This document shows, in pieces, positions 19,639 to 27,733 of a stretch of 32,000 nt of DNA; position 1 is the stretch's first letter; each line of letters starts with the position of its first letter. The notes under the pieces were generated by a model. That model ran no database searches, was not told the DNA's origin, and saw only the letters and a list, made by a program, of their open reading frames with translations. The position numbers were made by a program, and so were the translations under genes. Source of the DNA: Candidatus Saccharimonadota bacterium (GTDB taxonomy: Bacteria; Pseudomonadota; Gammaproteobacteria; Enterobacterales; Enterobacteriaceae); assembly GCF_023585745.1 (NCBI RefSeq), contig NZ_CP097762.1:360001-392000 (forward strand), given 5' to 3'.

Positions 19639-20261
19639 ATGCTTGTTATTATTTTGCACAATGAAAACTAATGCTAATAGCATCATATAAAATACCCTTT
19701 GAAATTTTTAACGATATAAATCTAAAATTATCCAAACATTGTATAATAACTCAAAATAACAGAAAAACTTATTAAGTTTATTAATACAATTACTGAAGAT
19801 AATATATTAAAATGTATCATTTTAACAAAAAATTGAATTATATTATAATAAATACCTTTTATGCACATTTATTGAAACATGCAATAAACAATTATGAAAA
19901 AACTAAAATGATGCTCATTACTGAAACAAATAAAAATTCTGTTAATCTACGAGACTCAATAATAACTTAATTACAAATGATCTAATGATCCCAGAACAAG
20001 ATATAGCTAAATCATAAAAATTATGATAATAAAAATAACCACATGTAAACATACTAGAAACACACTTGTTTTACTAAATAAAACATATAAAATATCTACA
20101 ATACATGAAAAAAATTAACTGCAATAAAGATAATAAATTTCATTATCATAAAAATACATAAATATATGCCGGGAACTGCATGATAAACATCATATCTTTA
20201 CAAAACTATAAACTACATAATATTTTATTGTTTAATTCAAATAAAAATTTACAACGTATTT
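19639..20261 (+). pseudogene. thrS: Decayed N-terminal half of thrS (TGS domain and N2 editing domain), broken by frameshifts and stop codons
   Basis: The ancestral ATG at 19639 keeps an AGGGA Shine-Dalgarno sequence (19626-19630). Short translated islands in shifting frames are colinear with E. coli ThrRS residues 1 to about 220:
- MLVIILHNEN* versus MPVITLPDGS
- PFEIFNDINLKLSKHCIITQNNRKTY* versus [26 protein letters not shown]
- ITEDNILKCIILTKN* versus LIENDAQLSIITAKD
- FYAHLLKHAINNYEKTKMMLITETNKN versus [28 protein letters not shown]
- LNHKNYD versus LAEKNYD
- NSNKNLQRIYEIT* versus DSNNKMLQRIYGTAW
I count about five frame changes and at least ten in-frame stops. Confidence 0.85.
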
Positions 20262-21533
20262 ATGAAATCACCTAGAATGAAAAAAAAAATTAGCACTCCT
20301 AAAAATACGTCGAAAATCTTAAACAAATATGACCATCGTATCCTAGCGAAACAATTAAATTTATACCATACACAAATAGATGCTCCAGGCATGATTTTTT
20401 GGCACCCAAATGGGTGGATTTTATTTCAAGAACTAAAAAAATTTATGCGAACACAACTAAAAATATATAAATACCATGAAGTTAAAAGCCCAATGATGAT
20501 TGATCAAAATCTATGGAAAAAAACTGGTCATTGGGACAACTATTACGAGCATATATTTACTACTGATTCGGAAAACCGAAACTTTTGCATCAAACCAATG
20601 AACTGTCCAGGACACATACAAATTTTTAATTACGGTATAAAATCTTATAAAGACTTACCATATCGTATTGCTGAATTTGGTGATTGTCATAGAAATGAAT
20701 CATCAGGATCTTTGCATGGACTCATGAGAACACGATCTTTTACACAAGATGACGGACATATTTTTTGCACAAAAACACAAATATTTGATGAATTAAACTA
20801 TTGTATTGAAATGATGTATAATGTATACAAAATATTTGGTTTTAAAACTGTACTGGTTAAATTATCTACTCGTCCATTAAAACGCATAGGGACAGATGCT
20901 ATCTGGGATGAAACCGAAAAATATTTATACCAAGCATTAAAACATAATAATATTAAATTTCAATACCAACCGAACGATGGTGCTTTTTATGGCCCTAAAA
21001 TAGAATTTATTCTATTAGATTCACTAAATAGAACTTGGCAATGCGGTACTATACAGTTAGATTTTTCTTTACCAAATTTATTGCACACACATTACATAAA
21101 TTCTGAAAATATCAAATTAGCACCTATAATGATTCATAGAGCAATATTAGGATCCATGGAAAGATTCATTGGTTTAATAATAGAAGAATATGGAGGTTTT
21201 TTCCCAACATGGCTAGCTCCAGTACAAGTTGTTATTATCAATGTTACAAAAAAACAAACCCAATATGTATCTGTAATAGAAAAAAAATTAATAAATAAAA
21301 AAATAAGAACTCAAGTAGACTTGAGAAACGAAACAATAGGATTTAAAATTCGGTATTATACCTTGTTACGTATTCCTTATATACTAATCTGTGGAAATAC
21401 AGAAATGGAAAAAAATACAATCACTATACGTACTTACAAAGGAAAAAACATAAAAAATTATGATATAAATAATTTTATTAAAAAATTACTATGTGAAATT
21501 AACAATTATAATTTGTATACAATGGAGGAATAG
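20262..21533 (+). CDS. thrS: Threonyl-tRNA synthetase, catalytic core plus anticodon-binding domain only (N-terminally truncated ORF of 423 aa, versus 642 aa in E. coli)
   Basis: From YDHRILAKQLNLYH onward the ORF is colinear with E. coli ThrRS from about residue 240 to 642. The zinc-ligand contexts are kept (KPMNCPGH, TQDDGHIF, IMIHRAILGSMERF), as are the class II motifs (FGDCHRNESSGSLHGLMRTRSFTQDD), and the C-terminus ends ...MEE. The first ~22 codons are out of the ancestral frame and there is no Shine-Dalgarno sequence, so the actual start is uncertain. Confidence 0.8.
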   Translation: MKSPRMKKKISTPKNTSKILNKYDHRILAKQLNLYHTQIDAPGMIFWHPNGWILFQELKKFMRTQLKIYKYHEVKSPMMIDQNLWKKTGHWDNYYEHIFTTDSENRNFCIKPMNCPGHIQIFNYGIKSYKDLPYRIAEFGDCHRNESSGSLHGLMRTRSFTQDDGHIFCTKTQIFDELNYCIEMMYNVYKIFGFKTVLVKLSTRPLKRIGTDAIWDETEKYLYQALKHNNIKFQYQPNDGAFYGPKIEFILLDSLNRTWQCGTIQLDFSLPNLLHTHYINSENIKLAPIMIHRAILGSMERFIGLIIEEYGGFFPTWLAPVQVVIINVTKKQTQYVSVIEKKLINKKIRTQVDLRNETIGFKIRYYTLLRIPYILICGNTEMEKNTITIRTYKGKNIKNYDINNFIKKLLCEINNYNLYTMEE

Positions 21534-22952: not shown

Positions 22953-23957
22953 ATGCTTATGTTATTAAAAAAAATCGATCAGTTGGTTATCCAAGCGAAA
23001 TCATCTATATTAGAATCTAATAATTTCTCTACTTTAGAAGAGACACGTGTTAAATTTTTGGGTAAAAAAGGACATATACATCAATATTTAAAAACTCTAC
23101 GTCATGTTCCCTCAGAAATACGAATAAAATTGGGAATAAAAATTAATCAAGCTAAAAAAGATATTTACATATTATACACACAACAAAAAAATACCCTAAA
23201 ATTAAATAATATAAAAAATACCTTAGCTCTAAATACATTAGATATTACTCTACCGGGTCGTTTTTCAGAAACAGGCAAAATTCATCCAATCACACATACT
23301 ATAGAGCACATGAAATTTTTTTTCAAAAAATTAGGTTTTTCTATAGAACATGGTCCGGAAATTGAAACAAACTATTTTAATTTTGATGCATTGAACATTC
23401 CTGAACACCACCCTGCAAGAGAAGAACATGATACTTTCTGGTTTGACGAAACACAATTATTACGTACGCATACATCCGGAGTACAAATACGCGCTATGAT
23501 GAAAAACGCTCCACCAATACAAACTATTTCTTTTGGAAAAGTATATCGAAAAGATTATGATCAGCATCATACGCCTATGTTCCATCAAATGGAAGGGTTT
23601 ATAATAGATACTAAAATAAATTTAAGTAACTTAAAAAAAATATTATATGATTTTCTGTATGATTTTTTTAATAAAAATATTATTCTACGCTTTAGACCAT
23701 CTTATTTCCCCTTTACAGAGCCATCTGCAGAAATTGATATTTTAGAAAACAACAAAAAAAAATGGTTGGAAATATTAGGATGTGGAGTAATACATCCCAA
23801 TATATTAGATCATGTTGGAATTAATACAAAACAATTTTCAGGAGTAGCTTTTGGCATTGGAGTAGAAAGAATAACCATGTTATTATACCACTTAAATGAT
23901 ATAAGAACTTTTTTTAAAAATGATTTACAATTTCTTAGACAATTTAAATACCCATAA
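22953..23957 (+). CDS. pheS: Phenylalanyl-tRNA synthetase alpha subunit
   Basis: The 334-aa product contains [76 protein letters not shown] and [11 protein letters not shown]. The second ATG at 22959 has better spacing from the AGGA at 22950-22953 and may be the true start. Confidence 0.95.
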
Positions 23958-23966
23958 AGGTATCTA

Positions 23967-26384
23967 ATGAAATTTAGTGAAATGTGGATACGTCAATGGA
24001 TTAATCCTCCTGTAAACAGCGCTGAATTAGGGGATCAGCTAACTATGGCTGGGCTTAAAGTTACTGAATTACAACCAGTATCTAACAAATTTTATGAAAT
24101 AATTATTGGCGAAATTATAGAATGTAAAACCCATGAAGCTTTACAAAATATATGGATAACAACAGTAAATATTGGAGATATAAAACTATTAAATATTTTT
24201 TGTCAAAAGAAAAATTGCAAAAAAAACATCCGAGTTGCTGTAGCTAAAATTGGAGTGATATTACCAAATGGTAACTACATAAAACCAATAACCATACAAG
24301 GAAAACAATCAGAAGGTATTTTATGTACTTTTGCAGAGTTAGGTATTACGAATATTACTGAAGAAATTATAGAACTACCGAACGATGCGCCCATTGGTCA
24401 AAATTTATTTAATTATTTAAATCTACATGATAATACACTAGAAATTAACATTACTCCAAACCGAGGAGACTGCCTTAGCGTTATTGGCGTATCTAGGGAA
24501 ATAGCAGTTATAAATCAACTTAAACTAAAAAAAATTAAAACATCTGCAGTTATTCCAACGATTAGTGATACTATCCCGATATTTATCGACGTACCAGAGG
24601 TATGCCCACAATTCTTCGGAAGAATTCTAAAAAATATTAATATAAATACCCCAACACCTGTATGGATAACAGAAAAACTACGACGATGTAATATTAATAC
24701 AGTTAATATAGTTATAGATACTATCCATTATGTATTACTGGAATTAGGTCAACCCATTTATATATTTGACTATGAAAAACTTGAAGGTCAACTAATTTGC
24801 ATAAGATTTTCTCAAATTGGTGAAGAACTAGTGTTATCTAATAAAAACAACAAAACATTAAAACTTTTTCCAAACACAATAGTGTTTTGTGACAAAAAAA
24901 AACCACTATCAATCGCTGGAGCAGCTATACCGGATACATATAGCGTTCAACCTACAACACATAATATTATTTTACAATCCGCTTTTTTTTATCCTATAAC
25001 TATAGCCAGACAATCTAAACAATATAATTTACATGATCCTTACTCTTTTCGTTACGCAAGAGGAGTTGATATAAAAATATCCGAAGAAGCTTTAAATCAA
25101 GCTACAAATTTATTAATAAATAACTGTGGAGGACAATCCGGTCCAATCATAAATATAACGAACCATAATTTTTTACCAAAAACAATAAAAATTACATTAA
25201 ATCGATCAAAATTAGATAAATTACTTGGATTTCATATACCTGATCAAAAAATCTCACACATTTTAACGCAACTTGGTTATAAATTTATATTTATAAATGA
25301 TACTTGGACAGTAACAATACCCACTTGGCGATTTGATATATCTATAGAAGAAAATTTAATAGCAGAAATAATACGTATTAATGGATATAATAATATTCCT
25401 AAAAAAACATTTTATCACTATCACTCCAGTACAAATCAAAAATATCATCATAACTTCTCCGATATATCATTATCCAGAGCAAAAACTTTACTTATCGATA
25501 AAGGATATCAAGAAATAATAACATACAGTTTTATAAATCCTAAAATTCAAAAACTATTACACCCAAAACAAACACCTTTAATTTTAAAAAATCCAATTAC
25601 ATCAGAAATGTCGGTTATGAGATTATCTTTATGGACTGGTCTCATAACAACGCTATTATATAATTATAATAGACAGCACAAACAAATTAAACTCTTTGAG
25701 AGCGGTATATGTTTTGTTCCCAAAAATCATTCTAATAAACAAGTAGAACAAAATCTTATGATATCTGGAATACGCTCTGGTCTCAGATTTAATAAACATT
25801 GGGATCTAGGAATATATCCTGTAGATTTTTACGATATAAAAGGTGATGTAGAAGCACTATTAAATATCACTATTAAAATGCATTGTGTAAAATTTAGGGA
25901 ATATACACATCCTGCTCTACAACTTGGACAGAGCGCTGCTATTTACGTAAAAAATATATGTATTGGCTATATTGGAATGATTAATCCTATGATACAAATG
26001 CAACTAAACATACGTCCCAAAATATTAATGTTTGAACTATCATGGAACATGATGAAGCAATGTACATTTTCTGAAGTTCATAATACTATCTCTGTTTCTA
26101 AATTTCCTAAAAATTACCGTGATATTTCCGTAATAATACCCGAAGATATCTGCATAGATTCTATTATTACTGCATGCAAATCGCTTTCTAAAAAAGATAA
26201 AATTATTGACATTCAATTATTTGATATCTATAAAGGCCAGAAAATACCAAAAGGTTTCAAAAGTATTACTATGCAATTATCCATACAAAGTAATACACAT
26301 ACTCTAGAAGAAACAGAAATTTCTGATATAATTAAAAAATGCGCAATAATTTTACAAACACATTTTAACGGCACTATAAGATAA
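23967..26384 (+). CDS. pheT: Phenylalanyl-tRNA synthetase beta subunit
   Basis: The 805-aa product starts [14 protein letters not shown]. It contains [73 protein letters not shown] and the [17 protein letters not shown] (FDX-ACB) domain. It is colinear with E. coli PheT (795 aa). An AAGG Shine-Dalgarno sequence lies 6 nt upstream. Confidence 0.96.
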
Positions 26385-26713
26385 ACGCACTAATAAATTA
26401 CAGTTTTAAAAGATAAATCAAACCCAAATAAATAAACTATATTATATTTAATTCAATTAATATTTAAATTTTATTAAAATCTTTAAATAGAATAGAACAC
26501 TAAACACGATAATTTAATTAAAACATTTTTACCAATCTACTAATAAATTAAAAATTTAATATATAAAATCTTTTAACCCATACATAATTTATTAATTTAA
26601 ACAAATCTATAAAATACTGCATTATCTATACCGTTAGATAAAAAACTTAAATTTCATAAATATTCATGCTAACATAATAAGTATGTTTTAAATATCTAAA
26701 ATAAAGGAAAAAA

Positions 26714-27733
26714 ATGTACTCTTTAAGATTATTACTATCTGATTCATATGATCCATGGTTTAATTTATCGTTAGAATCATATATATTCCAAAACATGCCT
26801 AAAAATCAAACTATACTATTTTTGTGGAGAAATCAAAACACAGTGGTTATAGGACGAGCACAAAATGCATGGAAAGAATGTAATACTCGCCGTATGGAAA
26901 GAGACGGCATTAAATTAGCTAGAAGAAGTAGCGGAGGCGGCGCTGTATTTCATGATTTAGGTAACACCTGCTTTACCTTTATGTCAACTCAAGAAAACCA
27001 TGATAAGAAAATATCTACAAAAATAGTGTTAGATGGATTAAATAATATTGGCATACAAGCTAAAATCTCTGGGAGAAACGATCTCGTAATATCTACAAAA
27101 GACGGAGAACGTAAAATTAGTGGTTCTGCCTATCGTGAAACATCTAATGGAGTATTTCATCACGGTACTTTATTATTACATGTAGATATTAATAAACTTA
27201 CTTATTATCTTAATCCAGATTTAAAAAAATTAGAAACTAAAGGTATCTCTTCTATACAATCAAGAATTACTAACCTAAATACAATTCAACCTGATATTAA
27301 CCATCAAAAAATTTGTCAAGGATTAATAGACGCTTTTTTCAAACACTATAAAACACGCACAATACCTGAAACATTGTCTATGAATAATGTTATGCATATA
27401 CCAGATTTCAAAAAACAATTCAATAAACAACAAGATTGGAATTGGAATTTTGGAAACGCTCCAGCATTTACACATCAATTAGATACACGTTTTCACTGGG
27501 GTAATGTAACATTACATTTTGATATAGAGCGCGGAATAATAAGTAGAAGTCATATTTTTACAGATAGTTTAAATCCAGATCTATTAGAAATATTAGCTAA
27601 AAAATTAATAAATACTCCATATAATACTAAAAGCATCAAACAATGTTGTAAACAATGGATAGAAGAAGCATCAACCAAAAATAAAATGGAAACATATGAT
27701 GTTTGCGATTGGTTAATAAAAAGTATATCTTAA
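26714..27733 (+). CDS. lplA: Lipoate-protein ligase A
   Basis: The 339-aa product MYSLRLLLSDSYDPWFNLSLE...LFLWRN.NTVVIGRAQN.WKECNTRRME.DGIKLARRSSGGGAVFHDLGNTCFTFM...KISGSAYRET...FHHGTLLL is colinear with E. coli LplA (338 aa). An AGGA Shine-Dalgarno sequence lies at 26705-26708. Confidence 0.95.
   Translation: MYSLRLLLSDSYDPWFNLSLESYIFQNMPKNQTILFLWRNQNTVVIGRAQNAWKECNTRRMERDGIKLARRSSGGGAVFHDLGNTCFTFMSTQENHDKKISTKIVLDGLNNIGIQAKISGRNDLVISTKDGERKISGSAYRETSNGVFHHGTLLLHVDINKLTYYLNPDLKKLETKGISSIQSRITNLNTIQPDINHQKICQGLIDAFFKHYKTRTIPETLSMNNVMHIPDFKKQFNKQQDWNWNFGNAPAFTHQLDTRFHWGNVTLHFDIERGIISRSHIFTDSLNPDLLEILAKKLINTPYNTKSIKQCCKQWIEEASTKNKMETYDVCDWLIKSIS

Follow-up and report, generated by a model that had tools for sequence, protein, structure and literature searches.

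Degeneration of the phenylalanyl-tRNA synthetase editing pocket in Blochmannia, a sub-megabase symbiont of carpenter ants

[quoted passage not shown] 2011 cited there). For the E. coli enzyme, six residues, R244, H265, G318, E334, T354 and A356, are given as involved in editing (PMC3553970), and the usual editing-dead mutant is G318W (PMC3553970, PMC12449066), in which, in E. coli and Salmonella, a bulky side chain narrows the Tyr pocket and makes editing about 80-fold lower (PMC3553970). The B3/B4 fold can also act on other substrates when it carries other pocket residues, as it does in the canavanyl-tRNA deacylase CtdA (PMC12449066). More generally, as far as Melnikov et al. [quoted passage not shown] A literature search for Blochmannia together with editing domain, with Melnikov et al. 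2018 represented by those articles, returned no paper on PheRS editing loss.

The stretch of DNA that we analyzed (the window, 32,000 nucleotides) covers bases 360,001-392,000 of a genome of 746,321 bp in one contig, with 27% GC. The PheT proteins of the same genus carry the names Blochmannia pennsylvanicus, herculeanus and vicinus or are assigned to symbionts of Camponotus modoc, C. nipponensis and Polyrhachis turneri, and the 15 same-genus genomes measure 0.70-0.79 Mb; these names and sizes place the source organism in Blochmannia, whose members live as obligate symbionts in the bacteriocytes of carpenter ants, and it combines host restriction with a reduced, AT-rich genome. The pheT gene, encoding the PheRS beta subunit (23967..26384, + strand), is an intact open reading frame of 805 codons in which all five Pfam domains score above cut-off. 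Its domain order, B1/B2 (tRNA_bind), B3/B4, B5, B6/B7 and B8 (FDX-ACB), is that of a bacterial PheRS beta subunit, and it sits behind pheS in a thrS-infC-rpmI-rplT-pheS-pheT cluster, as expected for bacterial PheT. The alpha subunit gene pheS (22953..23957, + strand) retains the FPFTEP motif and, at codon 23847-23849, the specificity residue that corresponds to A294 of E. coli. A lipoate-protein ligase gene comes next after pheT, and at the place of E. coli ihfA (window 26384-26714, + strand) there is no open reading frame of at least 50 aa. An exact look-up of the PheT protein, a related-locus search and blastn against E. coli genomes gave no match.

The B3/B4 editing domain (residues 213-388; 24603..25130, + strand; PF03483, E 4e-48) has kept its fold, and its pocket is degenerate. 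Residues were mapped with a MAFFT alignment to E. coli K-12 MG1655 PheT and with phmmer against E. coli PheT 3pco_B (E 1e-246); PMC3553970 and PMC12449066 were the sources for the roles of individual residues, and the set of six residues was fixed beforehand by the literature. A preliminary description of this DNA had proposed an alignment without gaps up to residue 265 with a 3-residue offset after it, which proved right, the extra 1+2 residues lying near E. coli 278 and 294. The four substitutions that it listed are likewise present at the codons it gave, in gap-free stretches under both methods: Tyr265 in place of E. coli H265 in the first signature motif (24759..24761, TAT), Gln337 in place of E334 (24975..24977, CAA), Asp357 in place of T354 (25035..25037, GAT) and Tyr359 in place of A356 (25041..25043, TAC), all on the + strand. 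It had also called A356W the standard editing-dead mutant, which has to be corrected: the papers cited above give G318W, and a literature search for A356W found no paper.

The decay of the pocket is broader than that description had it. Asn244 replaces R244, which contacts the tRNA C75 backbone (24696..24698, + strand), and Ile321-Pro322 replaces G318-G319 of the second signature motif (24927..24932, + strand), so that R244N and G318I complete the loss of all six editing residues of an E. coli-type competent PheRS. G319P is joined by A312S (Ser315; 24909..24911, + strand) and by N254H (His254; 24726..24728, + strand), a change private to this genome, Asn being found in 15/15 sister species. 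Neither signature motif, QPxHxFD or GVMGGxxS/T, is preserved: the His of the first is Tyr and the second retains only G315. D251, Y255, P263, G315 and Y360 are retained.

The loss exceeds what general divergence of the protein would give. As a background we used the 273 other PheT positions that are invariant in 14 large-genome gammaproteobacteria, 184 of which (67%) are kept here, as against 0/6 literature residues (Fisher P = 0.0014); the excess persists with a background restricted to B3/B4 (P = 0.005) and after matching by amino-acid type (P about 0.003). The domain itself is under purifying selection, with a pN/pS of 0.22 compared with 0.15-0.28 for the other PheT domains (four independent close pairs). 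In an AlphaFold model of PheT most of the B3/B4 block has a pLDDT of 81-95, and a fold search with this model returned E. coli PheT chains as its top matches; the model, of a monomer, has a pTM of 0.60 and differs from solved chains by a global rmsd of about 21 A, most likely because of how the domains are placed outside the tetramer.

Among the 16 Blochmannia genomes, none of the six residues is kept in 6, one in 8 and two in 2. On a tree of seven genes (FastTree), this genome is the sister of a ten-genome clade with which it has A312S, G319P, E334Q and T354D in common; the deeper lineages have different replacements, and E334 is still present in the two most basal genomes. Positions G318/G319 are occupied by Ile/Thr/Phe and Pro in Blochmannia. 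Over the whole genus, residue states average 4.8 at the six sites; the mean is 2.4 at the remaining invariant positions (permutation P about 0.0009 for 4.8 versus 2.4, for genomes that are kin and not independent) and 3.5 at ordinary variable ones. Purifying selection on B3/B4 together with free variation at the six sites fits relaxed constraint, that is, a scaffold retained for structure whose site has been freed from selection.

The same state is found outside the genus. For a wider survey, B3/B4 regions were drawn from another 80 genomes of the family, with each genus represented once. Among genomes below 1 Mb, this one included, 25/31 keep at most two of the six residues and 7/31 keep none, many of the small genomes being probably related so that 25/31 does not count independent events; all 23 genomes of at least 3 Mb keep 5-6, although they were chosen, conservatively, within the half of the large genomes that is more divergent. 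Retention follows genome size with a Spearman rho of 0.81 (82 genomes). A degenerate PheRS editing pocket is the ordinary state among sub-megabase symbionts of the family and is not special to this genome. One 2.0-Mb relative (G023, L020) has kept 2/6 PheT residues, and its LeuRS CP1 site is ruined, D345H being among the changes; its overall divergence is far lower, which indicates that editing can begin to decay at an early stage of genome reduction.

The preliminary description had further held that the rest of PheT is well conserved. The protein is intact, with its five domains, but its identity to E. coli PheT is 45%, and the B2 OB-fold tRNA-binding domain (24099..24401, + strand), although present, is without the HPNADKL loop and has lost the basic residues K109/R111. 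These substitutions, in the loop (24135-24149) and at the basic residues (about 24291-24299), occur in every Blochmannia; K61 and K109 are lost in 16/16 genomes and D60 in 15/16. B2 assists PheRS editing. A paper by Roy and Ibba, cited in PMC3553970, reportedly concerns such a role, going by its title. The B2 changes are possibly a co-decay with the editing site.

A genome-wide relaxation of proofreading had also been suggested, partly from a decayed ThrRS editing half upstream of pheT. That decay is real: thrS (20262..21533, + strand; 423 aa) has catalytic and anticodon domains and no editing domain, and in front of it lies an N-terminal remnant (TGS + editing; 19639..20272, + strand) with stops and frameshifts, detected by tblastn with a full-length sister ThrRS (E 7e-8). 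Five Blochmannia genomes have full-length ThrRS with intact editing residues; the editing domain is decaying in place, with stops, in G001, G008, G014 and this genome, and is gone in the remaining ones. If regain is excluded, it was lost at least five times independently in the genus.

We then ran the proposed survey of other synthetases, scoring the editing residues of IleRS, ValRS, AlaRS, LeuRS and ProRS against E. coli K-12. The residue numbers for IleRS, ValRS, AlaRS, ProRS and ThrRS are those we take to be the editing residues, and at these positions E. coli K-12 has the residues one would expect. IleRS (7/7), ValRS (7/7) and AlaRS (6/6) keep all 20 residues, compared with a background retention of 64-70%; these sites, which resist drift, serve as an internal control and indicate that the loss in PheT is specific. 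LeuRS keeps 4/9 and ProRS 2/4, a partial erosion. In LeuRS, for which T247, T252 and D345 are supported as editing residues (PMC3747510), we found T247M, T252I, D342N and loss of the GTG loop, with R344 and D345 retained; in ProRS we found T257D and H369Y, with K279 retained. Across the genus the LeuRS CP1 site (C1:334846-337464) is eroded at T247, T252, D342 and the GTG loop, D345 being present in 16/16, and the ProRS INS domain (C1:304118-305863) is partly eroded, with a changed GxxxP loop and, in G011, no PF04073 match. Shortened open reading frames occur in essential synthetase genes, namely ileS of G003 (L168) and valS of G014 (L181) and G005 (L187), probably through frameshifts in homopolymer runs, whether real or assembly errors. 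Free-standing YbaK/ProX and D-aminoacyl-tRNA deacylase (DTD) were not found in any of the 16 Blochmannia genomes, nor AlaX or a second B3/B4 protein in this 99.98% complete genome; a free-standing deacylase of the CtdA type was rejected here since the only B3/B4 match lies inside pheT. The suggested relaxation of proofreading stands for PheRS and ThrRS and in part for LeuRS and ProRS, and falls for IleRS, ValRS and AlaRS, whose intact sites reject a complete genome-wide loss; editing loss in this genome is selective.

The genome encodes enzymes of tyrosine and phenylalanine synthesis. Outside the window, a pheA open reading frame (C1:195969-196883, - strand) of 304 codons starts at the prephenate dehydratase part and is apparently without the chorismate mutase domain, and the adjoining tyrA-type frame of 374 codons looks full-length. 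The symbiosis is thought to supply the host with tyrosine (PMC9381600).

Our reading of these results, which we hold to be very probable from sequence comparison, is that PheRS works normally in charging but has a defunct site for post-transfer editing. In the alpha subunit, the A294 pocket would still discriminate Phe from Tyr by size, and B3/B4 would be retained for its structural role in the beta subunit but could no longer hold and hydrolyze Tyr-tRNA(Phe): the tRNA contact of R244 and the catalytic and substrate-binding roles of H265, E334 and T354 would be lost, and bulky side chains at the G318, G319 and A356 positions would fill the cavity. Relaxation of selection for editing may date from the origin of Blochmannia or close to it, after which drift would have swapped residues singly and differently in each lineage. 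A modest rise of Tyr (and m-Tyr) at Phe codons would be expected, bounded by the selectivity of the first sieve. The comparison establishes the substitutions, their excess over the background, how they are spread in the genus and the conservation of the fold; from these, loss of hydrolysis, mistranslation and drift as the cause are inferred. In six Blochmannia genomes, replacement of Phe by Tyr at conserved columns is about 3% and does not exceed that of Tyr by Phe, a genomic substitution rate that is no test of mistranslation.

Alternative explanations differ from this reading to various degrees. The one nearest to it, which we regard as possible although somewhat doubtful, agrees that editing is lost and departs only on the consequence: accuracy would be preserved by an alpha site, perhaps tuned allosterically by the remodeled B3/B4, that discriminates against Tyr. 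The A294 pocket and its neighbors are invariant in the genus and pheS is under strong constraint (pN/pS 0.13); lost editing need not raise errors, since mitochondrial PheRS compensates by higher specificity (PMC11415595); changes at the G318/G319 positions of the M. mobile enzyme shifted the Phe/Tyr discrimination of its alpha site 3- to 6-fold; and a genome that makes its own Tyr (the tyrA-type frame) should remain under some pressure for accuracy. However, the alpha pocket residues that we inspected carry no distinctive substitution, and the M. mobile PheRS turned less selective (about 480:1), not more. It is improbable, in our estimate, that the pocket is remodeled instead of dead, with Gln334, Asp354, Pro319 and Ser312 giving a residual or altered deacylase specificity or a role with another ligand, as the CtdA precedent would allow. 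E334Q, T354D, G319P and A312S are fixed in an 11-genome clade of Camponotus symbionts, some through changes that AT bias does not drive, and such fixation could mean constraint and count against a defunct site. Among the 58 invariant positions changed in all 11 genomes, however, 25 are equally fixed, throughout the protein, so the fixation of four pocket residues is not special; sites 244, 265, 318 and 356 vary even inside the clade, and other Blochmannia lineages have different residues. There is little chance that within this clade the dead Tyr pocket was rebuilt into a site of new specificity or an allosteric tuner of Phe/Tyr choice, which would let a tyrosine-producing symbiont remain accurate without editing.

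It is quite unlikely that there was no specific loss and that the changes merely sample a general AT-biased divergence with editing largely intact. One third of the invariant PheT positions are indeed changed, but AT drift alone is rejected by the 0/6 retention against the 67% background, also with amino-acid type matched, and by the 20/20 residues of IleRS, ValRS and AlaRS that withstood the same drift. We give equally little credence to adaptive mistranslation, in which selection for a statistical proteome removed editing, as reviews have proposed for Mycoplasma and other host-restricted bacteria, parasites among them; the parallel ThrRS losses would suit it, whereas a vertically inherited obligate mutualist presumably has no evident need for antigenic variation, and the heterogeneous, stepwise replacement and the correlation with genome size suit drift. 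That faulty sequencing or an alignment made by eye produced the pattern can be practically dismissed. The earlier alignment did rely on an unverified E. coli sequence, but homology to H265, E334, T354 and A356 holds under a proper alignment with real E. coli sequences, which reproduce the mapping, and independently sequenced sister genomes share the codons, which excludes sequencing error.

The value of the defunct editing site as a finding is modest and comparative, in that it adds one more case to a described trend. The 16 Blochmannia genomes reveal the order in which proofreading was dropped, PheRS genus-wide, then LeuRS and ProRS partly, and ThrRS repeatedly and still ongoing, as well as what is kept, namely IleRS, ValRS and AlaRS. 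As a supplier of tyrosine, Blochmannia is a good place to measure tolerated Phe-to-Tyr mistranslation or its compensation.

Compared with the systems described at the outset, the pocket loss in Blochmannia PheRS is a kind of decay already known from M. mobile and host-restricted bacteria. The fold of CtdA is the same and its pocket residues also differ from those of PheRS, but CtdA is free-standing, with inserts of its own and a conserved site, whereas the Blochmannia B3/B4 sits in its usual place within PheT and its pocket residues are unconstrained. G318W likewise puts a bulky side chain at 318; it is an engineered single Trp, and in Blochmannia the residue is a naturally occurring Ile, accompanied by five other key substitutions. 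The trend seen in host-restricted bacteria, as far as Melnikov et al. 2018 is quoted, is reproduced within this family, B3/B4 being retained with substituted editing residues as in naturally editing-deficient host-restricted PheRS. The likeness to Mycoplasma in the preliminary description is supported by the absence of all six residues and by the bulky G318/G319 positions, where M. mobile has Thr/Gln. Both are natural alpha2-beta2 enzymes that retain B3/B4 with a degenerate second signature motif, in AT-rich reduced genomes in which further synthetases are without editing. They differ in that M. mobile PheRS keeps H265 and has G315 replaced, whereas Blochmannia PheT loses H265 and keeps G315; the M. 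mobile enzyme has been assayed and that of Blochmannia is known from its sequence, and the Blochmannia case is of independent origin, in a gammaproteobacterial mutualist.
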